This document shows, piece after piece, positions 18,986 to 40,902 of a DNA stretch of 64,000 bases. Below the pieces are notes generated by a model. It was not told the DNA's origin. It saw only the letters and a list, made by a program, of their open reading frames with translations, and ran no database searches. The position numbers and the translations under genes were made by a program. The stretch is from Candidatus Kapaibacterium sp. (lineage in GTDB: Bacteria > Bacteroidota > Ignavibacteria > Kapaibacteriales > NICIL-2). Each line of letters opens with the position of its first letter. The first letter of the stretch is position 1. Location of the stretch: positions 19,500 through 83,499 of the forward strand of contig JBKCNS010000005.1 in assembly GCA_046297095.1 (NCBI GenBank), written 5' to 3'.

Positions 18986-19023
18986 TTTGATACAGTAAAA
19001 AGATGAAACGAAAAAAGTCGTTG

Positions 19024-24609: not shown

Positions 24610-27600
24610 GTGAGTCCGGCGCGCTTGTATAAACATCTCGGGGTAGCGTTGAAAAACATCTTCGCCCGCGTATGGGTTGTGGCTGCAGTTCTGCTGTATA
24701 TAGCAACTGCCGCCGAGGTATGCGCGCAGCAAACCACCAAAGGTCGTGAGTTTGTTGTCTCGTTTTTGCCGAACATCCACAACTACGGACCGGCCTCCGA
24801 CGATAGTCTGTATATCTATGTGGTAGCGGATGTTCCCACAACGGGAACCATACAGTACAGTAATGGCTCGGTAACACTTTCCCGAAGTTTTTCCATACCA
24901 AACCCTGCTGTTATTTACACGTTCGCTCTGCAATGGACCGGCTACGAGTTGCGCGGATTCAACCAGAGCTTAGCCTTCGATAATGTAAACGACAACGAGA
25001 CCCCTATTCGCAGGAGTTTCCTGATAACGACCTCTGCAGATGTGGCAGTATATGCCATGAATCAAGCATCCACAACAAGTGATGCCGCAATGCTCTATCC
25101 CGTTCCCGCATTGGGTAAGGAGTATGTGTTGCTTAGTTACAAAGCCGATGGTGTGACAGATAATACCGGCCCCACGCTTAGCTATACGCCATCGGAGTTT
25201 TGTGTTGTGGCTACGCAAGACAACACTATTGTTAATGTCATACCCTCTGCACCGTCGCAAGTGAGCGGACTTGGCACAAAGTCCGTAGTGTTGCAGCGCG
25301 GAGAAGCATGGCTGTGTCAAACCGCATTCTCGACCTTCCAGCTCAATCATGATTTCTCCGGTACACGCGTTATCTCCAGTGCACCTGTGGCAGTGTTTAG
25401 CGGTCATCAACGAGCGTTGATACCGGTGGAGCAGCGCGGTAATCTTCAATCCCGCGATCATCTGTTTGAGCAGATGCCGCCCACATCGGTGTGGGGACGC
25501 TCCTACATTCTTACGCCGCTGGCTCAGCCGCCGGGATCGTCGGTCGTGACGGGTGTAAACGATTTATACCGCGTGGTGGCAGCCGAAGACTACACCGTGG
25601 TGCGATTGAACAATGTTGTGATCGCCACGCTGAATCGTGGCCAAGTGTACGAAGCGCCATTAACATCGCCGGGATTAATCACAGCGTCTGCCAAAGTATG
25701 CGTGGCTCTGTATAAACGCTCGCACTCGGTTGGGATGTCATTGCAAAACGGCGATCCCTTCATGCTCATTGTGCCACCGCGAGCTCAGTATTTGAAGCAG
25801 TATCGATTTACCAACTGCCAAGCCACCGGCGATTATGTTTCTCAGTTTATTACCGTAATTACCGCACAGAGCAATGCCTCGAGCATTACCCTGGATGGTC
25901 GTCCGCTGAATGCTACGTGGAAAGAGATTCCCAATACCTGTTATGTGTATGCGAATATCTCTTCCACCGATGGCGCTCACACGCTTTCCAGCCCCAAACT
26001 TATTGGACTGTATGTGTATGGCTACGGTGCGGCTATTTCGTATGGCTATGTAGGCGGTATGGCATTCGTCCCCGATGTGGGCGATGATAATGTTAGTGCC
26101 GGTCCTGATCGCAGTATTTGTATAGGAGACACAACTCAGATCAGTATTACGGGCAAGGCTGTGCGCCGCATCTGGAGCGGCGTTCAGGGCGGACAAAAAC
26201 CTCCGTGTGACAGTTGCGACAGCTTTAGCGTAGCTCCCACGCAAAACACCACCTATATCCTTAGCGCAGAGGATTCGCTGGGCTGTAGTATCCTGGATAG
26301 TGTAACGGTTGCGGTATATCAATTGCCATCTGTCGAGGCATCACCCGATACGGTGATTTGTACCGATTCACCTTTTGTCATCAGGGCCGACGGTTCCTTC
26401 ACCGATGTGCAATGGTCTCCGCCCATTGGCGTGCAGTGCCCTACGTGTGCGGTTACCACGGTGATTCCCACTCGAGATATCACCTATACCGTCACGGCTC
26501 ATAATGGTCCATCTGCGCGGTGTATTGCTACCGACTCCATACGCATTCGCTACGCGAAGGGCATTGCCAATGCGTTTCCAAAGCCGGTTACTGTATGCCG
26601 CGGAGACAGCGTGCGAATCAAAATTCCATACTCAGGTAATGTGCGATGGTCTCCGGCCACATCCTTGAGCTGTGCTACCTGCACCGATGTTGTGATCAAG
26701 CCACAACGCTCTCAGCGTTACACCATCGTGGGTGATTCGGCATCCTGCAGTACGCAAGCCACATTGGATATTGTGGTGGCAGACCCGCCTGTGCTGCGTG
26801 CGCCTGCCGACACAACCATATGCGCCGGCACGCCGCTCTTTGTAACTATACAAACCAATGCATCGCTTCTTGGTTGGCAACCCACCACCTATTTGCCCGG
26901 TACAAGTTTGCGCGTGCTGACCTTCACGCCCGACTCTTCCATCAGATATGTGCTTCGTGCCGAAAGCTCTGCAGGATGTGTGACCCTTGATACATTTTCC
27001 GTAACGGTACTTCCTGTACCCCGCATCAGCACACGTTTTGCAGACACGGTGGTGTGCCGGGGCGCTGTTGTGGATTTGTCGGCTACCATTACCGGTGCCG
27101 ATACCATTGAATGGACTCCGCCTACGGGCCTGAGCTGCACCGATTGCGCTTCTCCCCGGTTGATTGCATCAGACACCACCGCATACACCGTGCGCGCTCG
27201 CGCAAAGGGAGGCTGTACGGCCACCGCTATAGTGCGCGTTCAAACACGTCCCTCACCGCAGATTTCTTTGATGGCCGATACTGTGCGTGTGTGTAAAGGC
27301 GAGCGAGCAATGCTGGCGGCACGAAGCAGCAGCGGAAGTCTTCGTTGGGATCCCTCGGCAGGCGTAGAGTGTGCGGATTGCGATACCACCTATGTGATTG
27401 CCGTTGAATCGCGCGGCATTGTTGTATCATCGTCGAATTCTATTGGATGCACCACTCTCGATACCATGTGGCTTGCCGTGTTGCCTACACCTGTTCCGGT
27501 AGTAACTGTAGATAACGACACCTTGTGTGAGTCCTACGGAGTGGCGCGCATTCAGGTGCAGAGCGGCCTGCAGGGCGGTGTGCAAGGCGAGAAGTATTCG

Positions 27601-28800
27601 TGGCAACCATCTGACGGGCTGTCGTGCGCGGATTGCCCCAATCCCACAGCCAGACCTAGTGCCACCACAACCTACACTGTTACCATTCGCACGGCAGACG
27701 GCTGCAGTGCCTCAAAGCAGGTACCTATTGTAGTGGTGCCGTGTGCGCGCCGGCTTCGTATCACCGATGTGGATGCAGGAGCGGTGGTGGCATGCAATAC
27801 ACAAGACACATCCGTAGAAATAATCAACGAAGGCGAAACCGACATACGCATAGATTCGGTGGTGGTGCTTAGCACCGACGGCCTTGTTGCAGTGGTATCG
27901 GATTCTGTTGTGCGTGGAGCTATTATTCAGCCGGGCGCTCGCGTTCGCGTAGCGCTCCGGCTGATTCCTCAACGGTGGGGAAGCATAGGTGTACAACTCG
28001 GCGCGTTTGCCAACAGTGGAATGAATGGTGCTGATTCCATACATCGTGTGAACGTGCTTCTTCAAGCGCAAAGGCGCGACCTGATTTTGTCGGTTCTTCC
28101 TGCCAGCGTCACCGAAGGCGGTACCTTCGAGCTACCCGTATCATTTCGATCTGCATCGTGGAACGAAGTACCGGTGCGGGCTGCAGGCCTACGGCTTCGC
28201 TATGATAGATCGTGGATGTCGTTTACCGATACAGCTTCTCTTGGCACGGAGAGAAGCAATGCCGGATGGACGCTGCGCGCGGGATCGCAGATAGCCGACG
28301 GCAACGATGCCCTTGTGCAATTCGAGCTGAAGGGCGGCACGCCACTGCAGAGCAACGAGATTGTGCTGCGCCCTCGGTTTCGCGTGTTGCTTTCGTCAGT
28401 GGCCTCGTTCAGACCGCGCATCGACAGTGCGTGGTTTTTCGAACAGGAAGTATGCCTGCGTCCCGTGTTCGAGGACGCGGAGGTATTACCCTTTGGCTGT
28501 GTGCGGGAACTTCGCCGTGTAGATGTTTCCAATACCACCTTCGCACTGCGCGGAGTACGGCCGCTGCCGGTGCATGGCGATGAGTTTACTGTGGAGTATA
28601 GTGTGGCGTTTGCCACATCGGTACACATTGAACTCTATGATGCGTATGGCAAGTCTCTCACGCTGCTTCAGCAGGCGGATCATCCGTCAGGAAATTTTTC
28701 GCTTCGTGTTGATGCGCGGCAATTGGCTGCAGGTTTGTATCAATGCGTGTATACTGCTGCGGGCGTGGTATCTGCGATGCCGGTAGTAGTGATTCGGTGA
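24610..28800 (+). CDS. giant secreted T9SS cargo protein: IgGFc-binding-like N-terminal domain, about seven Cys-containing ~78-aa Ig/SprB-like repeats, T9SS C-terminal sorting domain
   Basis: 1396 aa. The track start at 24610 is GTG (true start uncertain). The repeats share the pattern C.G…W.P…LSC..C..P…P…TTY.V…GC…D.V.V.V. The C terminus SVHIELYDAYGKSLTLLQ…GNFSLRVDARQLAAGLYQCVYTAAG… is Por_Secre_tail-like. Confidence 0.75.
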   Translation: MSPARLYKHLGVALKNIFARVWVVAAVLLYIATAAEVCAQQTTKGREFVVSFLPNIHNYGPASDDSLYIYVVADVPTTGTIQYSNGSVTLSRSFSIPNPAVIYTFALQWTGYELRGFNQSLAFDNVNDNETPIRRSFLITTSADVAVYAMNQASTTSDAAMLYPVPALGKEYVLLSYKADGVTDNTGPTLSYTPSEFCVVATQDNTIVNVIPSAPSQVSGLGTKSVVLQRGEAWLCQTAFSTFQLNHDFSGTRVISSAPVAVFSGHQRALIPVEQRGNLQSRDHLFEQMPPTSVWGRSYILTPLAQPPGSSVVTGVNDLYRVVAAEDYTVVRLNNVVIATLNRGQVYEAPLTSPGLITASAKVCVALYKRSHSVGMSLQNGDPFMLIVPPRAQYLKQYRFTNCQATGDYVSQFITVITAQSNASSITLDGRPLNATWKEIPNTCYVYANISSTDGAHTLSSPKLIGLYVYGYGAAISYGYVGGMAFVPDVGDDNVSAGPDRSICIGDTTQISITGKAVRRIWSGVQGGQKPPCDSCDSFSVAPTQNTTYILSAEDSLGCSILDSVTVAVYQLPSVEASPDTVICTDSPFVIRADGSFTDVQWSPPIGVQCPTCAVTTVIPTRDITYTVTAHNGPSARCIATDSIRIRYAKGIANAFPKPVTVCRGDSVRIKIPYSGNVRWSPATSLSCATCTDVVIKPQRSQRYTIVGDSASCSTQATLDIVVADPPVLRAPADTTICAGTPLFVTIQTNASLLGWQPTTYLPGTSLRVLTFTPDSSIRYVLRAESSAGCVTLDTFSVTVLPVPRISTRFADTVVCRGAVVDLSATITGADTIEWTPPTGLSCTDCASPRLIASDTTAYTVRARAKGGCTATAIVRVQTRPSPQISLMADTVRVCKGERAMLAARSSSGSLRWDPSAGVECADCDTTYVIAVESRGIVVSSSNSIGCTTLDTMWLAVLPTPVPVVTVDNDTLCESYGVARIQVQSGLQGGVQGEKYSWQPSDGLSCADCPNPTARPSATTTYTVTIRTADGCSASKQVPIVVVPCARRLRITDVDAGAVVACNTQDTSVEIINEGETDIRIDSVVVLSTDGLVAVVSDSVVRGAIIQPGARVRVALRLIPQRWGSIGVQLGAFANSGMNGADSIHRVNVLLQAQRRDLILSVLPASVTEGGTFELPVSFRSASWNEVPVRAAGLRLRYDRSWMSFTDTASLGTERSNAGWTLRAGSQIADGNDALVQFELKGGTPLQSNEIVLRPRFRVLLSSVASFRPRIDSAWFFEQEVCLRPVFEDAEVLPFGCVRELRRVDVSNTTFALRGVRPLPVHGDEFTVEYSVAFATSVHIELYDAYGKSLTLLQQADHPSGNFSLRVDARQLAAGLYQCVYTAAGVVSAMPVVVIR

Positions 28801-28881
28801 TTGAATGGTTGGATGATCGAATGATCGAATGATTCACTAATTCACTGATACGCCAAAAGCCGGTGGCTCTTCTGCCCGCGC

Positions 28882-30525
28882 CTAATGGATAATCTGTGTT
28901 GCTCTGCCCGAGGCATATTTCTGTGCGATCTCGTCTACCAGAGTAGGATCATTGCCGGTATCCATCGTGCCGGTGCGCACCAGTGAATTGCTACCACTGT
29001 TGGCTAACTCCATAAAGGCCTCAAGCACACGCGGAGCATAGCGCCGCTTCTGATTGCGAAACATGGCTAGCGCTTGAGACTGACGGTAATCAATAGCAAT
29101 ACCTACATTGGATATGTCTCGCATCTTCGATGGCGCGGTCATTTGAGTAGCATTCGGCAATCGATACACGCGATTGTGATATTCGTCGGCAATGCGAATG
29201 ATCATTGCTTCAAGAACAATTTGCGGGCCTTCTAATTTTTCCGGAAAGCCGGAGCCGTCGTAATGTTCATGATGCTGAATGACAATCTTGCTGATGTATT
29301 CCATTCCTTCGATGGCAGCAAGCATCGCACTACCGCGCTCCACGTGCGAGTTATACATCAACTTGTCGGACATAGAGAGCATATCCGGTGTGAACGACAA
29401 AATGCGTTCGTCCATACCTGCTTTGCCGCAGTCGTGAAGCAAAGCAGCAAGGCGCACATTCTCTGTTTGTTCTTCAGACAGTGCCATTACCTTGGCTATT
29501 GCTACGGAGATGTCTGCAACAGCATGTGCATGGTTGTTAATGTGAAACCTATACATCTCGGGTAGCGACCCGGAGAGCATGCGCACCAGCGCCCGTAGCG
29601 GTGCCGGTGTGTTGATCGACCAATCCGCACGTGCATTTACCGGAGCAGTACTGATGCCAGCCTGCGCAAAGTCTTCTGCCGCGGCGTCTGCAATCTTTAC
29701 TGTTGAACTGCTTGACTCAGTCGAATCACCGGCATCAGTGACCGTTCCATCACCGGGCATGGGAAGCAGTTCAGTTGAATGCGCCAGCTCATACTCGGGT
29801 GTTGAGTCTTCGGAGCTTGGTTCATCCTGGGGTGCCAGGCCTAACATTTCTTCCATTGCTTCCACGGCGCGCGCAGACGGTGTGAGCTTTGGCGGCTCTA
29901 CAGCAGTAGAGATTGTAGGCCGCGGCTGAATGATGCGCTGCGGTCCTTTGCTTTCGTCGGTGGAGTTGCCTTCAGAGCTCTTTGATGCATCGTCGTTCTT
30001 CTTTTCGTCGATATCCGATCCGCGACGAATGGGTGTGGTATTGCGATTGGGAAAGAGCAAGGCCTGCAGCGATGTGGTGGAGCGCTGCAAAGGAATAAAC
30101 TGCTCGATTAGTAAACGCAATTGATAATGAATGTCGGTTGCAGGTCTGGGAAGTTTCACAAATCTGTGCACAGCTGTTTGCTCATTGAACAGATCGATTT
30201 CCTTTGCTGTTACAAGCTTGCTGAACACCACACGAATGGCTTCGGTGCTCAAGTATTTTACCTGAGTAAAAAACTCCAATCCGCTTTTCTTTCCGTAGCG
30301 CACATCGCCTATGATCAGGTGCGGGCGATAACCGTTCTTGATAAGCGTAAGTGCATTCTCCGGGTTCGATAGAATCTTCAATGTGAAAATTTTTCCGAAT
30401 TCACTTTCGAACCAGGTAACAAAAGAATGATCTTGGTGCACCAGCAATACCGTGAGCGGCCGCATGGGCTTGTCGATCTTCGTTTGCTCGGAGATCATCG
30501 GTTGATGAATACTGTACTTTGCCAT
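28882..30525 (-). CDS. response regulator with receiver domain and HD-GYP c-di-GMP phosphodiesterase domain
   Basis: ATG at 30525 verified. The N-terminal REC domain (…LLVHQDHSF…IIGDVRYGKKSGLEF…) is followed by a long Ser/Asp/Glu-rich linker. The C terminus carries HD…HHEHYDGSGFP (HD-GYP signature). Confidence 0.8.
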   Translation of the reverse strand: MAKYSIHQPMISEQTKIDKPMRPLTVLLVHQDHSFVTWFESEFGKIFTLKILSNPENALTLIKNGYRPHLIIGDVRYGKKSGLEFFTQVKYLSTEAIRVVFSKLVTAKEIDLFNEQTAVHRFVKLPRPATDIHYQLRLLIEQFIPLQRSTTSLQALLFPNRNTTPIRRGSDIDEKKNDDASKSSEGNSTDESKGPQRIIQPRPTISTAVEPPKLTPSARAVEAMEEMLGLAPQDEPSSEDSTPEYELAHSTELLPMPGDGTVTDAGDSTESSSSTVKIADAAAEDFAQAGISTAPVNARADWSINTPAPLRALVRMLSGSLPEMYRFHINNHAHAVADISVAIAKVMALSEEQTENVRLAALLHDCGKAGMDERILSFTPDMLSMSDKLMYNSHVERGSAMLAAIEGMEYISKIVIQHHEHYDGSGFPEKLEGPQIVLEAMIIRIADEYHNRVYRLPNATQMTAPSKMRDISNVGIAIDYRQSQALAMFRNQKRRYAPRVLEAFMELANSGSNSLVRTGTMDTGNDPTLVDEIAQKYASGRATQIIH

Positions 30526-30670
30526 GAGCTGAGTCTCTTCCTGTTGGGACGGCGGCACTTCCACCGCGCAGCGTTTATGGTGGAACGGTGCAGTTGGTTT
30601 ACCGAAGGAGTATCGTCGATTCAGGCTCTTTCTTTAAGCTTAGGGCTATTCGTGGCAGAGCGCGCAACCG

Positions 30671-32419
30671 TTATTGCGCAAATCGGCGCAGTGTGGCTTG
30701 CCAGTGTTCATTGTCCAGATCGTTACCCACAACTTCTATTTCCATTTTTTCGTTGAGCAGAATACGCCAGGGATAGCCCACGTATTCAAGTAGGGTTTTA
30801 GCATCCCGGTCTTCCTCGGGAATCACTCTGGCGGATTGCACCAGCACAACCTTTCCTCGCTCTTCTTTAATGCCGGGGAGTTCATTTCCTGCCCATAGGC
30901 TAATCACACGAATAGGCTTAGTGGCCATGGCTTTTACACCCGCAACCAGTTTCTTAAAGCCCTCGTCGCAGATGCCGCAATGGTCAGTGCGAATGTCGAT
31001 AAGTGTGATCATTCCCGCTAGCGTTTCCGAGCTTACTGCTTGGGCGGATCCCTGCATCATGAGCGACATCTTCGGAAAAGTTTTTCCGGTTTGAATGGCG
31101 CGGTCGGGATTGAGATACAGCTTCGCTGCCACCGAAAGCGGATGCAACGGATATTGTTTTGTGAGAAGCTTATAAAGCTCGCGCTGCCTGGAGGTGATAC
31201 CGGCCACCTGCGCTTGAATACACTCGGCGTAAGCAATAGGAACCACCACATTTTCTGCGGTATTCGTAGCCAGTACATCGTTGATGTATTGTTCCTTGCT
31301 ATCACGTTGGCGCGCATTCAGTGCGGCGTACATCGCCTGCGGATCTATAGCCCAAATAGATGACCACGCCGGAATTACTCGCAGTGCGCGCTCCATGAGA
31401 GCCTTGTCTTTGATTCCCTCGGGCAAACTCTCGGACAAGCCCAAATACGCCAAATACAACAAGCGTTCCGTGAGTGTGTCGCCCACTGTGCGAATCTGTT
31501 CTTTAAGCCGTTGTTCGTGGACATTCACGCCCATGCGGTTACGAAACGATGATATGTCGAAGCTTGCATTGGTGCCGCCGTTGCGGGTGTTGGCCACAAG
31601 AGCCGCTTCCATCTCGCGAGTGTAGCGCTCTTGGCGTTCCAGTACCTCGATAGCCGTAGTGATAAACGATTGCATAGCGGCGTTCCCGGCAGTAAGCGAT
31701 ACGCTGCCCGTGCGCTGCGGCACCGACGATGCATCGAACACAAGTTCTGTTTGCGTGCCGCGCGGCTCGATGCGAGCTGCGGCGCGGCCTTCCTGCACGC
31801 CATAGCCATCGGCGCTCATGCTGCACACGCGCACCGGGCGCATCCACGAGGAGTCTCCGTACACCAGCACTTGCCACGTGGCACCGCGCTCGGCGCCGGC
31901 AATCTTGGTGCGATACACTCCGTTCTTTACTTCCATGCGCCGGGCGCCGGCCACGGAGTAGCCATTGAAGCTGCCCATGGCGCACACGCTATCGATGCGG
32001 CGGGGCAACTGTGTGGGTGCCAGCGTTACACGAATTTCTTCTGTGCGTGGTACATCGCAGATAAAGGGGAAACTCACGGGCTCGTGATGCAGGCCCCCGA
32101 TGCGTATTCTGTACACACCATTCTTGGGAATCTCTACGGCGAACGATCCGGTTGCTGCTGCCGCAATTACCGTATCTGCACCGGGCGAGCCATAGCGAAA
32201 CACTTCCACAAAAGCATAGGGAACAGGCGCGCCATTGCTTCCGCTAATGCGTCCGCTTAGCACTGAGCTATCTGCCATTAGGCTTGGCGATACAACTACA
32301 ATGATGGCGATTACTGCCGTCCACAGGGCCGATACAGATGCCATGCGGGCGCGCAGCGCCACGCATGTGGTAAAAAAATCTCTCGAAGTGCGTCGAATGC
32401 TCTGCTGATGATTCATCAT
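30671..32419 (-). CDS. hypothetical exported protein with carboxypeptidase-regulatory-like N domain and C-terminal thioredoxin/redoxin-like CxxC domain
   Basis: Start uncertain: ATG candidates at 32419, 32416 and 32344. Signal/TM segment ALWTAVIAIIVVVSPSLMA. SGRISGSNGAPVPYAFVEV is a CarbopepD_reg-like beta-sandwich. The C terminus …IDIRTDHCGICDEGF… is a redoxin-like CxxC. Confidence 0.45.
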   Translation of the reverse strand: MMNHQQSIRRTSRDFFTTCVALRARMASVSALWTAVIAIIVVVSPSLMADSSVLSGRISGSNGAPVPYAFVEVFRYGSPGADTVIAAAATGSFAVEIPKNGVYRIRIGGLHHEPVSFPFICDVPRTEEIRVTLAPTQLPRRIDSVCAMGSFNGYSVAGARRMEVKNGVYRTKIAGAERGATWQVLVYGDSSWMRPVRVCSMSADGYGVQEGRAAARIEPRGTQTELVFDASSVPQRTGSVSLTAGNAAMQSFITTAIEVLERQERYTREMEAALVANTRNGGTNASFDISSFRNRMGVNVHEQRLKEQIRTVGDTLTERLLYLAYLGLSESLPEGIKDKALMERALRVIPAWSSIWAIDPQAMYAALNARQRDSKEQYINDVLATNTAENVVVPIAYAECIQAQVAGITSRQRELYKLLTKQYPLHPLSVAAKLYLNPDRAIQTGKTFPKMSLMMQGSAQAVSSETLAGMITLIDIRTDHCGICDEGFKKLVAGVKAMATKPIRVISLWAGNELPGIKEERGKVVLVQSARVIPEEDRDAKTLLEYVGYPWRILLNEKMEIEVVGNDLDNEHWQATLRRFAQ

Positions 32420-32475
32420 TGCTTCCTTAATATTTCGGTGCAGGGTGATTAGCGGTGGTGATGTTTGCTGCAAAA

Positions 32476-33606
32476 CTACGCGGAGCGAAGTTCTTGCATG
32501 ATGTGGCTAAGGGCATCAACGGCCTCGAGCACATCGTGAGTAGTAGTGGTGCGGCATACAGAGAAGCGCACTGCCGCGCGCGACTCCGCTGTTTCTCTGC
32601 CCATGGCCAGCAATACATGCGATGGCTGCATGGTGCCGCTCACGCAGGCAGAGCCATTGCTGCAGGCAATGCCGCGCAGATCCAGTAGTTGCAGTATAGC
32701 ATCGCCGTCCAGCTGCGCTGCATCGGTAAAGGATACGTTCAGAATGTGGGGCGCAGCATGCACGGGCGTGTTCCAGCGAATCTGCGGAATGCGTTCCTGT
32801 ATGCCGCTGCGCATCAATGCTACGAGCTCGCGGCAATGCGCAGTGGTCTGCTCGGCATCGCGCAGAGCAATGCGAACCGCATGCTGAAAGCCCACGATCA
32901 AGGGAAGCGATTCGGTGCCGGCGCGCCGGTTACGTTCCTGCCCACCGCCATGCTGATGCGCTTTGAAGTCTATGCCTTTGCGAATAAACAAACCGCCTAT
33001 ACCCTGCGGGCCGTGAATCTTATGCGCAGACACACTCACAAAGTCCACGCCCAGTGCGGCAACGTCCAGTGGGATTTTCGTAAACGACTGCACTGCATCG
33101 GTGTGAAACAACGCGTCCGGTACCATGCCTCGAAGAGAGGCGAGTTCGAACACGTAGCCGGTTTCGTTGTTCACATGCATCACGGACACGAGCGTGCGTG
33201 GAGCGTTGCATTCGGCCAATTCATGAGTGTGAATATTGCCCAGAGTATCCACGCCTATACTGCGCACCGATATGCCACGGCGAGCGCAATCCTCGGCCGG
33301 CTCGAGCACCGCGTGATGCTCCACGCTGCTGCATGCAATGCGATCTGCCAGCGCGGATTCTCCCGTGCAACTCTTTATCACGGTATTGTTCGACTCAGTG
33401 CCGCCGCCGGTGAAGATAAACTCCGCAGGATGGGCGTTCATGGCAGCGGCGATCTCCTCGCGCGCCTGCTCCACAGCCACTCGGGCTTGCCTGCCATAGA
33501 GATGCGCAGAGGATGCATTACCAAAACGGTCGCGTAGCCAAGGCATCATGGCTTCCAGTACTTCGGGATGAAGCTGTGTAGTAGCTGAATTGTCCAGGTA
33601 AATCAT
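32476..33606 (-). CDS. cysteine desulfurase (IscS/NifS family, class V aminotransferase)
   Basis: ATG at 33606 verified: MIYLDNSATTQ… PLP-lysine region SVSAHKIHGPQGIGGLFIRKG and active-site-loop Cys in …SNGSACVSG…. Confidence 0.85.
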   Translation of the reverse strand: MIYLDNSATTQLHPEVLEAMMPWLRDRFGNASSAHLYGRQARVAVEQAREEIAAAMNAHPAEFIFTGGGTESNNTVIKSCTGESALADRIACSSVEHHAVLEPAEDCARRGISVRSIGVDTLGNIHTHELAECNAPRTLVSVMHVNNETGYVFELASLRGMVPDALFHTDAVQSFTKIPLDVAALGVDFVSVSAHKIHGPQGIGGLFIRKGIDFKAHQHGGGQERNRRAGTESLPLIVGFQHAVRIALRDAEQTTAHCRELVALMRSGIQERIPQIRWNTPVHAAPHILNVSFTDAAQLDGDAILQLLDLRGIACSNGSACVSGTMQPSHVLLAMGRETAESRAAVRFSVCRTTTTHDVLEAVDALSHIMQELRSA

Positions 33607-33674
33607 GTGCAATAATAGGTACAATTTCACGGACCTTTTTTGGGGCAGATGTTTGGGTGAGTGCGGGGCTGTAT

Positions 33675-34427
33675 CTAGTTGTGATTGTTGATCGCACCGC
33701 TTTGTGATTCTCTTCGTGAATCTCTTTGTGAATCTCTTTGTGAGTCTGTACCCGACTTCAGCAACTTCCCCTGCTTCACCACTTGTACATGCGGCGCAAT
33801 CTTCTTGAATAAACGCGGGCCTATGCCGCGCACCTTGCGCAGCTCGCTTACAGAGCGAAACCTCTTGCGCGATCTATAGTCCACAATTCTTTGGGCAAGA
33901 GTGGGCCCTATGCCCGGCAGCAAACACAAGCTGTCTGCCGATGTCACATTCACATCCATGGGCCGGGCAGGGGGTTGCTTCTTCTTCGAATATCCGGCGC
34001 GGCCGCCAAATGCTCCGGGCCTAGATGCAGCGCGGCCTGCAGCACCTTCCTGCGGCGGTAAGGCAAACAAAATGCTGTCTCGCACAGCGGCAGCGCTGTC
34101 TATGCGGCGCTGAATCTCGGCCCGCAGGGCGTAGCCAAATGGATCCGCGGGCGATTCCACAATACGCATCACCACCGTGAACGTGCAGTATGCCAGCACA
34201 AAGCCCGCTACAATCAATTCGCTGCGGCTGATTTGCAACCATTCAAGGGCAAGAGCCTGTAGTTTTTTCCCGGAATCTTTCGGAAGGGAATGTGTGGGTA
34301 GCGATCGCAGCCACAGCATCGCTTTGCGTGCGGTGCTGCGCATGCGTGTGCTATTAAGCCCTCTCCCACTCTTACTCTTACTTTCACTCTTACTTCCGGC
34401 CCTCTTTGTTTTCCAATGCGTAGCCAT
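33675..34427 (-). CDS. ComEA-family helix-hairpin-helix DNA-binding protein
   Basis: ATG at 34427 (34445 is TTG). Membrane anchor followed by C-terminal tandem HhH (VNVTSADSLCLLPGIGPTLAQRIVDYR…RFRSVSELRKVRGIGPRLFKKI). Confidence 0.7.
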   Translation of the reverse strand: MATHWKTKRAGSKSESKSKSGRGLNSTRMRSTARKAMLWLRSLPTHSLPKDSGKKLQALALEWLQISRSELIVAGFVLAYCTFTVVMRIVESPADPFGYALRAEIQRRIDSAAAVRDSILFALPPQEGAAGRAASRPGAFGGRAGYSKKKQPPARPMDVNVTSADSLCLLPGIGPTLAQRIVDYRSRKRFRSVSELRKVRGIGPRLFKKIAPHVQVVKQGKLLKSGTDSQRDSQRDSRRESQSGAINNHN

Positions 34428-34497
34428 GTCGATTGCTCTGCTCAATAGGTGGTAAATACCTTAAGGCTTCGCGCACTGCAATGCGTGAAGTGATGAA

Positions 34498-34598
34498 TGA
34501 GCGGGAGAGCGTGATTATGCGCCGAAGCGCTTGAGCGGGAGAGCGTGATTATGCGCCGAAGCGCTTAAGCGGGAGTAAGAGGCTGAGCGGGAGAGCAG
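34498..34598. repeat. two perfect tandem copies of a 34-bp unit (tgagcgggagagcgtgattatgcgccgaagcgct) plus degenerate partial copies
   Basis: Direct reading: 34498-34531 and 34532-34565 are identical. gagcgggag recurs again at 34568 and 34584. Confidence 0.85.
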
Positions 34599-34644
34599 TT
34601 ACTATGCCATGGAAACCGGTGTACCAAACGAGTACCGGTTTATC

Positions 34645-35346
34645 TTAGGTATCAAGTTCGTGTTCGGATTCTCCGTCTGCTTCGCTCTCGTTGTCGTCTT
34701 CCGTGCGGGGTGGCAGAATAGACAGTATGGGCAGAAGGCTGGAAAAAGCATCACGCAGAGCGTCGATGGTAGAATCGTTGTGCAGCACAAAGTCCGCACG
34801 CTTGGCTTTTTCGGTAGACGACATCTGCTCGCTCATGCGCGCGCGAATGTCGGCAGCGCTTAAACCACTGCGCTCTTGAACTCGGCGCACGCGGGAATCT
34901 TCGGCGGCATCCACCACAATGACATAATCGAAGGCCGCTTCCAGGCCAACCTCGTAGAGCAAAGCCGATTCTATAAACACACGCTCTATGCCTTCGGCTT
35001 CGGCGCTGCGAATTTGCTCTTCGTGCCGTTGCAACACCGCCGGGTGAACAATGCGGTTCAGCATACCCAGGCGAGCATGATGCTCGGCTGTGGGGCCAAA
35101 CACCAAGGCGGAGAGGGCAGAGCGGTCTAAGCGGTTTTGTTCATCAAAAATGGCGTTTCCAAAGGTGTCGCGCAGACGTTTCTGCATCTCGGGGTCCGAA
35201 TTTATGAGCATTCGCGCTGTTTCGTCCGACGAGAATACCACATGGCCGGCCTCTTTGAGCCAAGCCGCTATGGTGGATTTTCCGCTGCCCATGGCGCCGG
35301 TGATGCCTATCACCACTATGGGTGTGTCTGCCGATGTGTTGTTCAT
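34645..35346 (-). CDS. coaE: dephospho-CoA kinase
   Basis: ATG at 35346 verified. P-loop GITGAMGSGKST and the CoaE lid region. 233 aa including an acidic C tail. Confidence 0.85.
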   Translation of the reverse strand: MNNTSADTPIVVIGITGAMGSGKSTIAAWLKEAGHVVFSSDETARMLINSDPEMQKRLRDTFGNAIFDEQNRLDRSALSALVFGPTAEHHARLGMLNRIVHPAVLQRHEEQIRSAEAEGIERVFIESALLYEVGLEAAFDYVIVVDAAEDSRVRRVQERSGLSAADIRARMSEQMSSTEKAKRADFVLHNDSTIDALRDAFSSLLPILSILPPRTEDDNESEADGESEHELDT

Positions 35347-35541
35347 GCCGCAAACTAAAAAAATAGACGGACCTATTGCCCACACCGCTCTTAGCCCTAT
35401 CTTTGCAGTCTCTTTTACGCGGCGCGGATCATTATGACAATGCTGTGTAGGGGAGAAAGCGACTGTCCTGGGTTTTGTTGCAGGCGCAAAAGCAACAAAA
35501 GCAGCAAAAGCAGCAAAAGCAGTAAGAGAAATACAAGCAAA

Positions 35542-35613
35542 GGTCCCATCGACTAATGGTTAGGTCACCACCCTTTCAAGGTGGCAGTACGGGTTCGAAT
35601 CCCGTTGGGATCA
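35542..35613 (+). tRNA. tRNA-Glu (anticodon TTC), 72 nt, CCA not encoded
   Basis: Hand fold: acceptor ggtccca/tgggatc (one G-U pair), D-arm gac…gtc, anticodon stem ccacc/ggtgg with loop cTTTCaa, T-arm acggg-ttcgaat-cccgt, discriminator a. Confidence 0.8.
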
Positions 35614-35614
35614 C

Positions 35615-35660
35615 AAAAAAGCCGGCTCTGAACTACTTCAGAACCGGCTTTTTCATTTTC
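35615..35660. terminator. candidate bidirectional intrinsic terminator (12-bp stem with one mismatch, flanked by an A-run and a T-run)
   Basis: aaaaaa-gccggctctgaa-ctac-ttcagaaccggc-tttttcattttc sits between the tRNA-Glu 3' end and the 3' end of the converging giant gene. Confidence 0.55.
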
Positions 35661-35727
35661 ATACAGCGTTCTTCGAATCCCCCTCCGCCTCCTCGCCAAC
35701 TTCCTCAACCGTCCATCACACACTTCC

Positions 35728-38700
35728 TTACTCAATCACGACCATTCGCCGCACAATGCCTATATCGGTTGTGACGCGCAGAGCGTAAATGCCCGGGGGT
35801 ATGTTTGGCACCGGCAGTGAGTATACGCCGGCGGCAGCTACCGGAACCTTCGATGCAATTACTTCGCCGGGAATGGTGAAGAGTGCCAGTTCGCGCACCG
35901 GCACATCGCTTCGAAGATCTATGTGCTCATGCGCAGGATGCGGCGCAACCATCATACCATCGTTGTTGAGCTGAATCAGGTACATCGAATTGCCGCACAC
36001 AGAGCGAACACGCAGGGGCATGGATTGGGTTTCGATGCGAACGCAGGTGGTGTCCAGATCGCTCACAATGTTTCGAATGCTGATGAGGTCCTCCGAGTAG
36101 TCGCTCACGCAAATGCGGCCGCCCACGCGGCCAAGCACCAGGGGCGTGCTGCCAATAGTGCCGGCAGTACGCAAAGTGTGTATAGCTTCTGTAGAGGTGT
36201 AGGTGGCTTGAGGACTATACCACAGAGCTTTACCGATGTGTATCTCGCATTGCAATGAACGTATGTCAACGTCCGGCGTGGATACTCCCACCAATCGCAC
36301 TTCCACGCTATCCCACACACTCACGCTGTCCGGCGCTTCTACACGAAGCAGCAGTCGTGGTGCGGGAGCGATGCTAATAGTTTGTGTAGCAACGGCAACG
36401 CAGCCGTTGGTGTCTTGCGCGGTGAGTGTATATCGCGTTGTGATACCGGGGCGCAATGTAGCGCGCACTGTTGATGCCACGACTGTGCCCGCAGGATCCG
36501 TCCATACGGCAGACCTCAAGGGAATGGACCACTGCGCATTCAGGTCGGCATCGTGATTCTCGCATACCGTGGTATCTGTGGTTACCAGTTGCTGCTCCGT
36601 AAATACCTGAACTCTCACGGTGTCGTCGGTTTCGTAGCCGCCGTAACGAGACACAATACGGTATGCAGCGGGAGCATTGACCACCACGCGAAGGGAATCC
36701 GATGAGCTCAAAGATTGATTGGCTGAGGAATACCATTCGTAGGTGTATCCAGTTTGCAGATTACGTACACGGAGCACAGCAGCAGAGCCACGACACACAA
36801 TGGTATCGGCGCCGGCATCTACGGCTACCATGCGCAAACCGATCACGCGTACGGTATCGCGACCTTCGCATCCGCCGCGCTTTCCATGAAGTACGTATAG
36901 CACGGTATCGGCAGCAGTAACCTGCGCCGTGTCGGTGTCGGAAATGCGATTGCCGTTGATGTCCGACCACTCATAGCTTACCGATGGATCGGGCGCAAGA
37001 GCCCGCAGCGTGATTACTGTGCCGGCCAGCGCCTTGGCCACCGCTGCAGCTTGCACGGGTAGTCGTGAATCAACAATAATAGAAACCGAATCTTGAGAAG
37101 TGCATCCTTGAGCGGTGGCTGCTTGTACTATTATCTGCATGCTGCTCAGTGCAGTGGTGCGAAGCAGAGAGCCGCTTCCAAGCACGGTCCCGCTTGCGCT
37201 GCGCCACTCGTACTGCATTGTTGAATCCGGGTTCGCAACACGAAGTTCAACCTGGCTTTGCGGACACACGGTGGTATCTCCTGTTGCTTTTACCGGCTGA
37301 ATATCATACACATCCACCGTCATGGTTGCGGTGTCGCGGCATGTGGCCGTGCGGAAATCTCCGCTCCATGTCATTACCGTGTAGGTGGTGCGTTGTGTGG
37401 GTGTGCACTTTGGTGTGGCGCTGGAGGAATCGTCAAGCCCGGTAAGTGGCGACCACGCGTATTTGGCACCGCCGCCCGCACGCAGGAACAGAGAGCTTCC
37501 GCGGCAGGTGAGCGTATCGGGAGAAAGCTGCAGCTCTAAGGCAGTAAGCACGCGCACGCGAATAGTTTTTTGTAATTCACAGCCATAGGCATTGCGCACG
37601 GTACAGGTGTAGTCGGTGGTTGTCGTTGGCGATGCAATGGGCGATCGCGACGTAGGATTCGTCAGCGATGATGCGGGAGACCAGCTGAAGCTAAGGCCCG
37701 TGGTGTCTAGGGCAACGGTGCCGGTAATGGTAACAGGAAGTTCCACGGAACCGCCTTGACAAATGATGGGCGAGTCGGGAAGAATGAAGAGTGGTTTGTT
37801 GGCGACGCGAACAGTAACGCGCGCCGTATCAACGCATGAACCTTCATACACAGCCACTGCATACGTAGTGGTGGCGGTAGGACGCGCTGTGACAACGGCA
37901 GAGTCTTTTCTGTTGAGAGTAGTTGAAGGCGACCACACGAACACGCCTCCGCCGGAGGCCCGCAAGATTGCCGGTGAGCCATTACACACAGTAGTATCGG
38001 CCGTTACCGAGGCTTTGGCCGTAAGTACATACACCTGCACGGAGTCTTCAATCCAGCATCCGTCGGCATTGAATCCGCGTACATAGTAGGTGGTATTCTT
38101 GTCCGGTTTTGCGCGCACCGACGCGCCGGCGGAATCGCTCAGCGTTTGGGCCGGTCGCCACACATAGCGCACACCACCGGTGGCCGAGAGCACTACGCCG
38201 TTGTCGTTACTGCATCGGTATAAAGATTTCGGCGTGGCAGTAATTACCGGATAAGTAGTCACGGTAATTGTTTTTTCGAAGGTCACGGTGTCGCCACCGG
38301 AATACACTACATACATGCGCACCGTAAACGCACCATTCTTGGCAAAGCGATGAGTTACCACCTGACCCGCGGTGAAGGGCGCGCCCATGTCGTCGAAGTA
38401 CCACACGATGCTGTTGAGCGGACACGTGGCAAAGGGCGATATCGTGCCCTCGAACTGATACTCACCGCAACCGGGCTTGGTTACAACTTTAAATGTGTCC
38501 GGATGCACGGTGCGGAGAATGCTGATGCCCGGGCAATAGCAATCGCAAATGTTTCCGCGGAAGGCGCCGGCACTAACGGGGAAGTCGTCCTTGGAAGTGC
38601 TGGTCATAGATGCGGTTACGATTTTATAATTGCACGAGTTGGCATCTATCAACGCCAGCGACGTGCCGCCCTCGCTACCGTTGCCGCCCAAATACGTTCC

Positions 38701-40011
38701 GTATCGCACGGCGGTGCCATCGGAACCCAATACCGTAATAACTTTATCCAGCGAGGTACTTGTGGGTTTTATTGCGTTCGGAGTAACCGGTATTGATGCT
38801 CCCGCTGCCATCATTGCCGAGAGTATCACGGCATCTCCGCCAATACGTGCCTTCACGCCATGAGGCTTGAGGTTCGATCCAATGAGAGTTGCAAAGGCAA
38901 CAGCAGACAAATCAGGAGCGATGGATATAATAAAGCCACCATTCACATCGCCGCGCTGAAGGCTGGCGGTGGCAGGAAAATCTGAAGACGAGGTACGACC
39001 CACAATCAACACACGCTGTGTGGAAGCGCTGAACGAGAGTGAACTAAGATCGTCGTAATTGCTGCCGCCAATCAAGTAGCTGCCCACGGGCGTCGGCGTT
39101 GAGCCATCATTCCATACCATAAACACGCCGTCGCCCGTGGCATCCGGCTGGCGGTTGCGAGCAAGGGGAAAGGTGGGCGAGTTCGATCGAGCAGAGATGT
39201 ACACCTTGCCGTTGTTGTAGGTGATTCCCCGTGCATCGTCGTTGTTGGTACCGCCTATGTAGGTGGAATACTGAATAGTGCCGGTGTTGTCCAGCTTTGT
39301 GAGGCATAGGTCGATATTGCCGGCAAGCGTGGATTGATAGGCATTCGATGTGCAGTAATAATTGCGTGAGGTTGAGCTTACCACCCAAGCTTCATCGTTT
39401 GGTGTGCACACGATATTTCCGAAGGCGCGAAGATTACCGGTGATACTAACCTCGTCGTCGGTGTAATACGGTGCAGAGTTGTAGCCGCGGGCATAAACGC
39501 GGCAGTACACCAGGCGTGAGCCGGTAGAGTTCAGGCGCGCCACAAAGTTCACATTGGATCCGTCCAGGTACGCTTGGTCCGAGCCATTTGTGATGGGGAA
39601 TGTCGTGGAGGATGTCACGCCGCAGATCACCACATCACCGGAAGGAGTGACCGCTATGGAAGAGCCTACTTGATCGTTGCTGCCTCCAATGAAGGTTCCC
39701 CAGATGAGCGTCGTCAGCGTAGAATTATACTTGGCCACATACACATTGCATCCGCCAATGCGCGTTGGCTGATACGTGCCGGGTGTTGTCTCTCCGGCAA
39801 TGCCATAACCAACCACATACACATTGCCGGCGTTATCAGTTACCATGTCCTTAATGCAGCACTGCGTAGAATTGGCAGCAGTGCCCAGGCCTGCACGCGT
39901 ACCCTTGAAAAACTCAAGATAGTCGTATGGCTGCGCGCAAAGAGAAAACCCGCACGCGGGCATAAGCCATAGCATGCAAAGTTTGAGTACCAAGATTCGA
40001 AGATGTGTCAT
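35728..40011 (-). CDS. giant secreted T9SS cargo protein: SBBP/beta-propeller-like N-terminal repeats, PKD domain, multiple Cys-containing Ig/SprB-like repeats, T9SS C-terminal sorting domain
   Basis: ATG at 40011 gives signal peptide MTHLRILVLKLCMLWLMPACGFSLCA. N-terminal GNVYVVGYG…/GDVVICGVT… repeats. PKD-like VWYFDDMGAPFTAGQVVTHRFAKNGAFTV. Repeat family shared with 24610..28800. C terminus GVYSLPVPNIPPGIYALRVTTDIGIVRRMVVIE. Confidence 0.75.
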   Translation of the reverse strand: MTHLRILVLKLCMLWLMPACGFSLCAQPYDYLEFFKGTRAGLGTAANSTQCCIKDMVTDNAGNVYVVGYGIAGETTPGTYQPTRIGGCNVYVAKYNSTLTTLIWGTFIGGSNDQVGSSIAVTPSGDVVICGVTSSTTFPITNGSDQAYLDGSNVNFVARLNSTGSRLVYCRVYARGYNSAPYYTDDEVSITGNLRAFGNIVCTPNDEAWVVSSTSRNYYCTSNAYQSTLAGNIDLCLTKLDNTGTIQYSTYIGGTNNDDARGITYNNGKVYISARSNSPTFPLARNRQPDATGDGVFMVWNDGSTPTPVGSYLIGGSNYDDLSSLSFSASTQRVLIVGRTSSSDFPATASLQRGDVNGGFIISIAPDLSAVAFATLIGSNLKPHGVKARIGGDAVILSAMMAAGASIPVTPNAIKPTSTSLDKVITVLGSDGTAVRYGTYLGGNGSEGGTSLALIDANSCNYKIVTASMTSTSKDDFPVSAGAFRGNICDCYCPGISILRTVHPDTFKVVTKPGCGEYQFEGTISPFATCPLNSIVWYFDDMGAPFTAGQVVTHRFAKNGAFTVRMYVVYSGGDTVTFEKTITVTTYPVITATPKSLYRCSNDNGVVLSATGGVRYVWRPAQTLSDSAGASVRAKPDKNTTYYVRGFNADGCWIEDSVQVYVLTAKASVTADTTVCNGSPAILRASGGGVFVWSPSTTLNRKDSAVVTARPTATTTYAVAVYEGSCVDTARVTVRVANKPLFILPDSPIICQGGSVELPVTITGTVALDTTGLSFSWSPASSLTNPTSRSPIASPTTTTDYTCTVRNAYGCELQKTIRVRVLTALELQLSPDTLTCRGSSLFLRAGGGAKYAWSPLTGLDDSSSATPKCTPTQRTTYTVMTWSGDFRTATCRDTATMTVDVYDIQPVKATGDTTVCPQSQVELRVANPDSTMQYEWRSASGTVLGSGSLLRTTALSSMQIIVQAATAQGCTSQDSVSIIVDSRLPVQAAAVAKALAGTVITLRALAPDPSVSYEWSDINGNRISDTDTAQVTAADTVLYVLHGKRGGCEGRDTVRVIGLRMVAVDAGADTIVCRGSAAVLRVRNLQTGYTYEWYSSANQSLSSSDSLRVVVNAPAAYRIVSRYGGYETDDTVRVQVFTEQQLVTTDTTVCENHDADLNAQWSIPLRSAVWTDPAGTVVASTVRATLRPGITTRYTLTAQDTNGCVAVATQTISIAPAPRLLLRVEAPDSVSVWDSVEVRLVGVSTPDVDIRSLQCEIHIGKALWYSPQATYTSTEAIHTLRTAGTIGSTPLVLGRVGGRICVSDYSEDLISIRNIVSDLDTTCVRIETQSMPLRVRSVCGNSMYLIQLNNDGMMVAPHPAHEHIDLRSDVPVRELALFTIPGEVIASKVPVAAAGVYSLPVPNIPPGIYALRVTTDIGIVRRMVVIE

Positions 40012-40193
40012 TCCCGCCAATCAGATATGATGACGAGCAAAATAGCCACCGGCCGAGGTTTATGCGCAGGTGCGGGGCGGAGCAGAGTGGAGCAGAGTAG
40101 AGCAGACTGAAGCAAATACCTGCCATGCGTGAGCACTGAAGATCAGTTTGCATTAGCTACTCATGAACTACTGACTCACTTCTCGATCACAAA

Positions 40194-40901
40194 CTACTTG
40201 AGCTGCTTGGCGATTCCGGCCTTATCCAGGAATCCCACGTGCTGCCACGTACGTACACCGTTTTTGTAGAGCATCAGCACGGGAAGCGCATCAATGCCAA
40301 GCTCGCGGCAAAGGTTCGGGTGCTCGTCGGCATCAATGCGAACCAGCTTCATGCTTGATGCACGTTCTTTTGCCAGCTCTTCCAGAAAGGGCTTCATTTT
40401 CTTACACGGTCCGCACCACTCGGCATACACATCCACGAGTACCATGGGGCCGGAGGTGACCAGAGCCGTGTATTCTATCATGCTCATGCCCTTTGCTTCC
40501 GCACTTGCACCGGAGGATTCCGGCAGTCCGGCTGCACGCCATTTCATCATGCCGCCTTCCAGTTCTACCACGTTGGTATAGCCGCGTGAGCGAAGACTGC
40601 GCGCTGCAGCGGCACTGCGCGAGCCCGCCAGACAATAGACGTAGAGCGGTGTGGAAGGTTTCCAAGATGATGTGTTCTTCTCAAACTCGCTTCCGTTCCA
40701 ATCCACGTTCACGGCGTTCTTTAGATGGCCGCCCTGAAACTCGCCCGGAGTGCGAACATCTAAAACCACCGCGCCCGGAGTGGTGCGAAGTTTCTCTGCG
40801 AATTCTTTTGCCGGCAATGATGTTGTGGAGCCGGATTGGCCGTTGCAGGATGCAAGCCATAGAAAGCTCAAAAACAGAGAGAGTTTGAGAGAGGAGATCA
40901 T
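40194..40901 (-). CDS. exported rhodanese-domain sulfurtransferase fused to a thioredoxin domain (lipoprotein)
   Basis: Signal/lipobox MISSLKLSLFLSFLWLASC. The rhodanese active loop CLAGSRS matches CxxGxR[SA]. The C-terminal thioredoxin has WCGPC. Confidence 0.75.
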   Translation of the reverse strand: MISSLKLSLFLSFLWLASCNGQSGSTTSLPAKEFAEKLRTTPGAVVLDVRTPGEFQGGHLKNAVNVDWNGSEFEKNTSSWKPSTPLYVYCLAGSRSAAAARSLRSRGYTNVVELEGGMMKWRAAGLPESSGASAEAKGMSMIEYTALVTSGPMVLVDVYAEWCGPCKKMKPFLEELAKERASSMKLVRIDADEHPNLCRELGIDALPVLMLYKNGVRTWQHVGFLDKAGIAKQLK

Positions 40902-40902
40902 A

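Follow-up and report, generated by a model that had tools for sequence, protein, structure and literature searches.

In a 64,000-nucleotide stretch of contig JBKCNS010000005.1 from Candidatus Kapaibacterium sp. (the window, with positions counted from its first letter), two long genes for putative surface proteins, here named A and B, lie on either side of a gene for an HD-GYP regulator, a gene for an exported redoxin-like protein (P4) and the genes for a cysteine desulfurase, ComEA and CoaE. The region is chromosomal and belongs to a Kapabacteria-like member of the Bacteroidota, from a host lineage that is poorly studied and known mainly from metagenome-assembled genomes (MAGs). The GC content is about 53% across the window, and the composition runs through the region without a break. 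An earlier sequence-only reading had taken the two giants to be paralogs that bracket a single adhesion locus. Comparison with related loci (L001–L017) led us to a different view, to which we assign a probability of about 0.7: A and B are independent surface-protein genes, and the genes between them represent inherited synteny rather than a unit with both giants. Literature searches combining Kapabacteria or IgGFc-binding proteins with the type IX secretion system (T9SS) yielded nothing useful. The region contains the following features.

24610..28800, + strand: gene A, 1396 residues, with a signal peptide, an IgGFc_binding head, an Ig-like stalk, a spacer and a diverged T9SS type-A sorting domain
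28882..30564, − strand: protein with a REC-like domain, a low-complexity linker and an HD-GYP domain (HD_5, E 5.3e-26; HD, E 5e-14)
30671..32347, − strand: P4, an exported protein that combines a beta-sandwich of the CarboxypepD_reg type, a helical domain and a thioredoxin domain like that of TlpA (AlphaFold2 and Foldseek)
32476..33630, − strand: class I (IscS/NifS-like) cysteine desulfurase, 2 bp upstream of P4 (Aminotran_5, PF00266, E 4.8e-70)
33675..34445, − strand: ComEA-like helix-hairpin-helix protein (HHH_3, E 6.4e-16; TIGR01259, E 7.4e-13, under its cut-off)
34645..35385, − strand: dephospho-CoA kinase CoaE (PF01121, E 1.8e-45; TIGR00152, 132.4 bits, cut-off 65.55)
35542..35614, + strand: tRNA-Glu(UUC), opposite in strand to the flanking genes (Rfam, 65.3 bits; ARAGORN)
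35615..35656, both strands: bidirectional intrinsic terminator in the gap from tRNA-Glu to the B stop codon (hairpins and U-tracts)
35728..40011, − strand: gene B, 1427 residues, with a signal peptide, an SBBP-like head, a PKD domain, eight Ig_7 repeats, a spacer and a diverged T9SS type-A sorting domain

Architecture of the two giant proteins

The principal domains of A and B were located as follows.

25081..26022, + strand: head of A, IgGFc_binding (residues 158–471; PF17517, E 8.6e-63, 212.8 bits)
26098..27741, + strand: stalk of A, seven tandem Ig-like repeats of about 78 residues each (residues 497–1044; repeat model, BLASTP and cysteine tabulation)
27742..28530, + strand: spacer of A (residues 1045–1307; weak HYDIN/VesB-Ig and cohesin matches only)
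28531..28797, + strand: sorting domain of A, a diverged T9SS type-A C-terminal domain (residues 1308–1396; PF18962, E 3.4e-4 to 4.8e-4)
36355–38214, − strand: stalk of B, eight Ig_7 repeats (Ig_7 matches and the A-repeat model)
35731–36006, − strand: sorting domain of B (TIGR04183, E 3.2e-4; PF18962, E 8.9e-3)

Both proteins begin with a Sec-type signal peptide, as judged by inspecting the translations by eye. That of A covers residues 1–39, with cleavage at ...AAEVCA/QQ (...VWVVAAVLLYIATAAEVCA/QQ), and that of B is cleaved at MTHLRILVLKLCMLWLMPACGFSLCA/QP. The A orthologues in L003 and L004 are likewise called at 1396 residues, while the open reading frame (ORF) of B measures 1430 residues up to 40020 and 1427 up to 40011. 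We found 249 homologues of A, and those with names come from Kapabacteria, Ignavibacteria and Chlorobi. The heads differ, as had been recognized before: A carries IgGFc_binding, and B matches PKD_4 and, weakly, an SBBP propeller. A solved homologue of either head was not found by sequence. The description of the giants as paralogs holds for the repeat stalk and the type of tail and fails for the heads and spacers, which are unrelated. The spacer is the part of A that diverges fastest; against the L007 orthologue, residues 1045–1396 (spacer and sorting domain) are 53% identical and the head is 80% identical.

The stalk repeats of A and B are homologous. BLASTP aligned the two repeat regions with an E-value of 8.5e-23 and 25–28% identity. 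A hidden Markov model (HMM) built from the seven A repeats alone recovered all eight B repeats (independent E-values 2.8e-15 to 1.6e-5) and gave no further match in the six-frame translation of the window; therefore, the shared family is real and not a chance resemblance. The Pfam family Ig_7 (PF19081, "Ig-like domain CHU_C associated") matched B in four stretches (86.3 bits, E 1.8e-24; gathering cut-off 27.3). A alone reached 24.3 bits, under this cut-off, and is tied to B through the HMM and BLASTP. Ig_7 is a family of the Bacteroidota with the same motif (C.G...W.P...TT.Y.V...GC...D.V.V.), but the A repeats differ from it in their sub-threshold score and in an extra CxxC in six of the seven copies. 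The tails of A and B, unlike those of Ig_7 proteins, match Por_Secre_tail (type A) and not CHU_C (type B).

An AlphaFold2 model of one A repeat (residues 806–888), based on an alignment of 14 repeats from the window, is an all-beta sandwich with a predicted local distance difference test score (pLDDT) of 92.7. The structure prediction proposed earlier thus returned an Ig-like fold. The best matches found by Foldseek in the PDB are the Ig-like stalk domains of GhpA, with a query-normalized TM-score (TMq) of 0.73, a root-mean-square deviation of 2.4 Å and 24–30% identity, and Ig domains of Rib, NCAM and titin also matched. The repeats belong to the Pfam Ig_7 family, are Ig-like and are nearest to the GhpA stalk domains.

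The cysteine patterns of the two stalks are different. Six of the seven A repeats contain four cysteines (C...CxxC...C), and the seventh contains two. The CxxC pair ("LSC..C") is absent from all eight B repeats, in which only the first and last cysteines are kept. The repeat family proposed in the sequence-only reading is confirmed by the profile comparison, but the motif quoted for it describes A only. Tabulation of the cysteine columns in 381 repeats, drawn from A, B and a set of 120 A homologues, gave the patterns CCCC (324), C--C (51), CCC- (3), C--- (2) and ---C (1). Each repeat had either both or neither of the CxxC cysteines, which argues that these two probably pair together. The outer two would then, by elimination, form a second pair, and one of them occurs singly in 6 of the 381 repeats. 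We infer disulfides C1–C4 and C2–C3 within each four-cysteine repeat. The four-cysteine and two-cysteine variants show the CxxC pair as one unit, which may help in modeling Ig_7 stalks.

The sorting domains score below the curated thresholds. The C-terminus of A scored 20.8–21.3 bits against PF18962 (cut-off 27), and that of B scored 16.7 bits against the same model and 20.6 bits against TIGR04183 (cut-off 23). We also aligned 26 C-termini, comprising 24 members of the A family and B from the window and from L007, and 23 of them matched PF18962 (Por_Secre_tail) at E ≤ 0.01, with a best value of 7.4e-12. From these profile scores, the sub-threshold tails may be read as a lineage-wide divergence of the domain from the Pfam seed. 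The earlier statement that both giants end in T9SS sorting domains is thus supported at the level of the family, while neither tail by itself reaches the curated cut-off. A T9SS machinery gene was not found among the window genes scanned against Pfam.

The closest known counterpart of this architecture is GhpA of Aureispira, a T9SS-secreted grappling-hook protein with an N-terminal hook, a disulfide-linked Ig-like stalk and a C-terminal sorting domain (bioRxiv 10.1101/2024.01.29.577165). A and B share with GhpA (PDB 9flx, 9fly and 9flp), and more loosely with SprB, the plan of a signal peptide, a head, a disulfide Ig-like stalk and a C-terminal sorting domain. However, they are four times shorter and have seven or eight repeats, compared with 52 in GhpA. 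Their heads (IgGFc_binding in A, SBBP-like with PKD in B) are unrelated to the hook, their sorting domains are diverged, and we saw no sign for A or B of a heptamer, of predation or of nearby PorP/PorE-like anchor genes. In the arrangement that we favor, A and B would be independently transcribed surface proteins built on one plan, in which the Sec signal precedes a distinct head, a stalk, a spacer and a type-A domain for type IX export. Seven or eight disulfide-stapled repeats would make the stalk rigid, and the stalks would most likely hold the heads off the outer membrane for binding.

Gene order and transcription units

The tRNA-Glu gene and the terminator separate B from the other genes. 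The terminator forms a hairpin of −30.5 kcal/mol (z-score −7.3) followed by U6 on the − strand, and a hairpin of −22.8 kcal/mol (z-score −5.9) followed by U5 on the + strand. Because the tRNA gene is on the opposite strand and is accompanied by this terminator, B must be its own transcription unit. The intervening genes had been described as all lying on the − strand; this is correct for the protein genes, but it overlooked the tRNA gene on the + strand and the terminator between CoaE and B. A simple terminator scan of the window was uninformative (21 terminator-like sites against 17.1 expected) and, owing to a single mismatch in the stem, did not pick up the real terminator. A sigma-70 promoter scan was also uninformative, with 6 promoter-like sites against 14.4 expected.

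The genes from the A side to the tRNA gene form a conserved syntenic block. The order DUF1573, extracytoplasmic function (ECF) sigma factor, 505-residue protein, NusB, GDH, A, P4, NifS, ComEA, CoaE is kept across Kapabacteria and holds down to 41–45% identity in A. In nine of the loci compared (L002, L005–L009, L011, L015 and L016), GDH-NusB-A stands beside P4-NifS-ComEA-CoaE-tRNA-Glu. CoaE, ComEA and NifS remain beside A in lineages that have neither the HD-GYP gene nor B. The block looks like inherited collinearity, since it includes plainly unrelated housekeeping genes. The tRNA gene adjoins CoaE in seven loci (L002, L006, L007, L008, L011, L015 and L016) and marks the edge of the block, with a variable slot beyond it. 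In L002, L008, L011, L015 and L016 this slot is occupied by unrelated genes, and B is absent; B orthologues, 95–97% identical, are present only in L006 and L007. In L008, the slot carries a gene for a class III nucleotidyl cyclase (Guanylate_cyc, L008 3908–5446) and, in place of B, a gene for a VWA/beta-propeller protein of 2421 residues.

The HD-GYP gene is also variable. The window, L002–L007 and L008/L009 carry it between P4 and A, and L001, L011, L015 and L016 lack it and have intact A genes. L001 is 96.5% identical to the window in DNA over ComEA-NifS-P4, upstream of the gap, and there the 1878 bp at 28792–30669 of the window are replaced by 81 bp (L001 3243–3323). No flanking repeat was seen at the L001 junction, and no remnants of the HD-GYP gene were found in the gaps between A and P4 in L001, L011, L015 and L016. 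In L012, L013, L014 and L017, the A orthologue is accompanied by neither P4 nor the HD-GYP gene.

DNA identity along the region is mosaic. L007 is 93.8% identical to the window over 40559–32444 (the rhodanese-thioredoxin gene upstream of B, then B, CoaE, ComEA and NifS), and its identity falls to 67–72% exactly at the NifS/P4 junction (32444–32473) and continues at this level through the HD-GYP gene and A. In L003 and L004 the breakpoint lies inside the HD-GYP linker (29606–29786), where the identity rises from 87–88% to 97%. We rejected a chimeric assembly as the source of the mosaic, since the NifS/P4 breakpoint recurs in three assemblies (L005, L006 and L007) made from different samples. 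The two halves of the region, and hence the two giants, therefore have different evolutionary histories.

These observations fit our preferred view of two independent giants. In this view, CoaE, ComEA and the desulfurase are housekeeping proteins and P4 is an exported reductase, and their block, together with GDH, NusB and A, has been inherited across Kapabacteria. B is an addition confined to one lineage and placed in the variable slot on the far side of the conserved tRNA gene and terminator. The REC-like/HD-GYP gene is accessory, with some lineages carrying it between P4 and A and others lacking it. The locus is then an ordinary one, with two modular T9SS-type surface proteins and a diverged TlpA-family reductase, to which a variant HD-GYP regulator has been added. 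It also gives a caution, in that the apparent bracketing proved to be inherited synteny combined with a variable slot that adjoins a tRNA gene.

The HD-GYP regulator, P4 and possible links to the giants

The two domains of the HD-GYP protein lie as follows.

30082..30465, − strand: degenerate receiver domain (ORF residues 34–161; profile of orthologues against the PDB)
29128..29556, − strand: HD-GYP catalytic domain (ORF residues 337–479; motifs LLHDCGK and HHEHYDGSGFP)

The protein likely starts at Met14 of the ORF (30525), which gives 547 residues, and its orthologues form ten clusters (P0001–P0010). In Pfam, the receiver domain matched REC at E 0.11 only. A profile of the N-terminal 128 residues of the orthologues, which includes the L010 orthologue with its canonical REC domain, matched receivers in the PDB, with HupR1 (2jk1) at E 1.6e-11 and also 2rjn and 3hv2. 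The receiver keeps the Asp (IIGD), Ser (VFSK) and Lys (VKLP) residues, but its acidic pair DD is replaced by HQ. This replacement is found in the window and eight orthologues, and the canonical form occurs only in L010 (LLIVDDE...TDHAMPGMNG). With the acidic pair lost, the phosphorylation pocket in the window protein is incomplete. The earlier assignment as an HD-GYP response regulator is accordingly sound for the HD_5/HD domain and for receiver homology, which the profile revealed, and needs the qualification that the receiver is degenerate.

The catalytic domain has GFP in place of GYP, as does PA4781. Its best solved relatives are V-cGAP3 (5z7c), PA4781 (4r8z) and PmGH (4mcw), and they are mixed in specificity: 5z7c is specific for cGAMP, and 4r8z and 4mcw are enzymes for cyclic di-GMP (c-di-GMP) and pGpG. 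The window protein shares with these enzymes and with RpfG-type regulators the REC-then-HD-GYP architecture and the HD and HHExxDGxG(Y/F)P motifs. It differs from the RpfG type in that the receiver of its clade lacks the acidic DD and a low-complexity linker of about 160 residues, specific to this clade, is inserted. Moreover, its host belongs to the Bacteroidota, and the gene lies beside a T9SS-type cargo gene.

The HD-GYP gene is convergent with A, with the stop codons 81 bp apart; therefore, the two are not co-transcribed. The spacer between the stop codons (28800–28882) contains a short tandem motif, ATTCGATC, twice, with related GAATCA/TTCAATCA units, and forms no significant hairpin (z-scores −1.2 to −1.5). 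A weak match to an Rfam snoRNA model was dismissed as chance.

Several observations weigh against treating A and B simply as independent genes within inherited synteny. In every visible context (the window and L002–L010), the HD-GYP orthogroup is tail-to-tail with an A orthologue, with gaps of 2–150 bp. The pair persists in L010 with a gap of 4 bp, and both flanks are otherwise unrelated there. As a background control we used 80 loci (737 kb) from a metagenome scan with the HD-GYP alignment, and none of these unrelated loci has an A-like or P4-like neighbor. The metagenome matches themselves were rejected as orthologues, because they are generic HD-GYP proteins only, with catalytic domains 27–42% identical. 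This pattern fits a real functional pairing that a reading of mere synteny would underrate, and the pairing in about three independent lineages is suggestive. Furthermore, each giant adjoins an exported CxxC redoxin: P4 lies by A, and a rhodanese-thioredoxin lipoprotein lies by B. Finally, A and B look like T9SS cargo from their tails, but with sorting domains under the curated cut-offs we infer, rather than observe, their export.

The HD-GYP pattern could be explained by a two-gene module, in which the REC/HD-GYP protein would be a dedicated cyclic-dinucleotide phosphodiesterase that tunes A only, and the other genes would be bystanders. Its substrate would be c-di-GMP, pGpG or 3'3'-cGAMP, and its target the production, secretion or surface behavior of A. 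In addition to the exclusive adjacency, the HD, HHE and DG..P motifs recognized by inspection and the alignment with characterized phosphodiesterases suggest a catalytic role. An analogy is available in PorX of Porphyromonas gingivalis, a REC-PglZ phosphodiesterase that regulates T9SS and binds pGpG (PMC9757075). The likeness, a receiver fused to a nucleotide phosphodiesterase with a link to T9SS, is one of analogy only, because PorX has a PglZ (alkaline-phosphatase type) fold rather than HD-GYP and acts on the secretion machinery and its genes. Against such a module stand the convergent orientation, the absence of the HD-GYP gene from the 97%-identical strain L001 and from L011, L015 and L016 with A intact, and the loss of the receiver acidic pair in the window clade. 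No cyclase (GGDEF), EAL or effector gene was found in the window, and Rfam searches of the window and of the sequence 5' to A and B turned up no c-di-GMP riboswitch. The adjacency in about three lineages could also be an inherited position followed by losses. Consequently, we regard this module as unlikely, although it survives best among the alternatives to independent giants.

A more specific proposal would make the REC/HD-GYP protein, itself specific to Kapabacteria, a phosphodiesterase dedicated to cyclic dinucleotides and would couple it genetically to adhesin A with its IgGFc_binding head; we consider this rather more doubtful. Cyclic-dinucleotide signaling is sparse in Bacteroidota. If the proposal were true, it would directly link c-di-GMP (or cGAMP) signaling to a T9SS-type surface protein in this phylum, and strain-level gain or loss of the HD-GYP gene would switch the control on or off. 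A functional pairing would provide a convenient case in which to study how cyclic dinucleotides control a type IX substrate.

P4 was described previously as a secreted CarboxypepD_reg and CxxC redoxin-like protein, and the present analysis agrees with this. Its ORF runs to 32473, with a probable start at Met43. The active site CGIC and the cis-Pro loop GYPW are invariant in the orthologues, and those as distant as 37% identity still have the signal peptide, DHCxxC and GYPW. The AlphaFold2 model, of moderate confidence (pLDDT 64), has a beta-alpha-beta thioredoxin topology around CGIC. Foldseek matched it to TlpA/ResA/CcmG/DsbE folds (4grf, E 1.6e-5; 4ka0, target-normalized TM-score 0.69; also 2b1k and 3gl3), and its N-terminus to transthyretin-like and CarboxypepD_reg folds. 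An exhaustive profile search gave 747 representative clusters of the family, mostly with end-to-end matches of about 550 residues, and a metagenome scan with the P4 alignment gave no matches. All eight distant relatives tested match Thioredoxin_8, AhpC-TSA and Redoxin (E 1e-9 to 1e-19), six of them also match CarboxypepD_reg, and one distant relative is named "TlpA disulfide reductase family protein". P4 is 97% identical to its counterpart in a Bacteroidota MAG (L001) and 72% identical to that of Candidatus Kapaibacterium sp. (L002). From the modeled fold and the matches of its distant relatives, P4 is assigned as an exported, diverged TlpA-family thiol-disulfide reductase. It shares the thioredoxin fold, CxxC, the cis-Pro loop and the export signal with the TlpA/ResA/CcmG reductases of Bacteroidota that carry an N-terminal CarboxypepD_reg domain, but it is too diverged for any Pfam or NCBIfam thioredoxin model, with no match even at E ≤ 10.

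The second redoxin and the gene preceding it are located upstream of B.

40194..40901, − strand: exported rhodanese-thioredoxin (WCGPC) lipoprotein (Pfam Rhodanese, E 5.7e-20; Thioredoxin, E 8.1e-23)
40903–41259, − strand: TrxA-like thioredoxin, preceding the rhodanese-thioredoxin gene

The rhodanese-thioredoxin gene is on the same strand as B, 173 bp upstream of it, and a lipobox (LASC/NGQ) is visible by inspection. L007 repeats this arrangement, and the gene is possibly co-transcribed with B. These positions raise the idea of redoxin-client pairs, in which P4 would serve A and the rhodanese-thioredoxin lipoprotein would serve B, as a periplasmic reductase or isomerase that proof-reads about 13 (A) and about 7 (B) stalk disulfides before T9SS export. 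P4 is exported with conserved motifs and adjoins A in every lineage that bears P4, and the perfect co-occurrence of the CxxC cysteines implies structural disulfides in the stalk. However, P4-like proteins are so common that one could plausibly lie beside a surface-protein gene by chance. The linkage of P4 to NifS, ComEA and CoaE is just as tight as its linkage to A, and some A orthologues have no P4 in their vicinity. We therefore consider such pairs improbable.

The model of the sequence-only reading, that the whole 15-kb stretch is one adhesion locus in which the HD-GYP protein tunes both giants and the redoxin manages their disulfides, has in its favor the common repeat family, the presence of the HD-GYP gene and an exported TlpA-like redoxin, and the recurrence of the full arrangement in L007 (HD-GYP protein 58% identical), but it is hardly tenable, because B lies behind a tRNA gene and a strong terminator, B and the HD-GYP gene are variably present (B being missing from five of the loci), A is convergent with its neighbor, L007 is a recombination mosaic of close relatives (94% over B to NifS) and not an independent case of conservation, the housekeeping genes for CoaE, ComEA and NifS are conserved alongside GDH and NusB whether or not the HD-GYP gene or B is present, A orthologues with four-cysteine repeats occur without P4 nearby (L010, by sequence), and TlpA-family proteins are typically reductants rather than disulfide-forming enzymes. 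Two independent giants within inherited synteny thus remain our preferred reading.

Other genes of the window

The earlier calls of a cysteine desulfurase, ComEA and CoaE were correct, since the Aminotran_5, HHH_3 and CoaE models match; for ComEA, the helix-hairpin-helix domain is the basis of the call. The desulfurase contains the motifs SAHK and SNGSAC, which correspond to the PLP (pyridoxal phosphate) lysine and the active-site cysteine loop, and it stays under the cut-offs of the NifS/IscS equivalogs of NCBIfam (381.6 against 530.75). A second class-V aminotransferase is encoded at 44507–46102 (+ strand; Aminotran_5, E 2.6e-30, with Cys/Met PLP matches). The 14 kb at 32476–46102 thus hold two desulfurase-like genes, one rhodanese and three thioredoxin-fold proteins.

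Two further proteins of the window have sub-threshold Por_Secre_tail matches. A BNR/sortilin-like protein of 1126 residues (41317–44697, + strand) scored 23.9 bits at its extreme C-terminus, and the 505-residue protein (20734–22251, − strand), for which Pfam gave no other match, scored 19.1 bits at its C-terminus. In L015 and L017, the proteins that occupy the same syntenic place as the latter, and so correspond to it by position, also carry PF18962. Four candidates for T9SS-type cargo therefore lie within 24 kb. A trio of genes at 18170–20518 (− strand) encodes a DUF1573/HYDIN-Ig protein, a protein of about 270 residues and an ECF sigma-70 factor. This trio, possibly a sigma/anti-sigma surface-signaling unit, adjoins the 505-residue cargo candidate in L003, L005, L007, L008, L011, L015 and L016.

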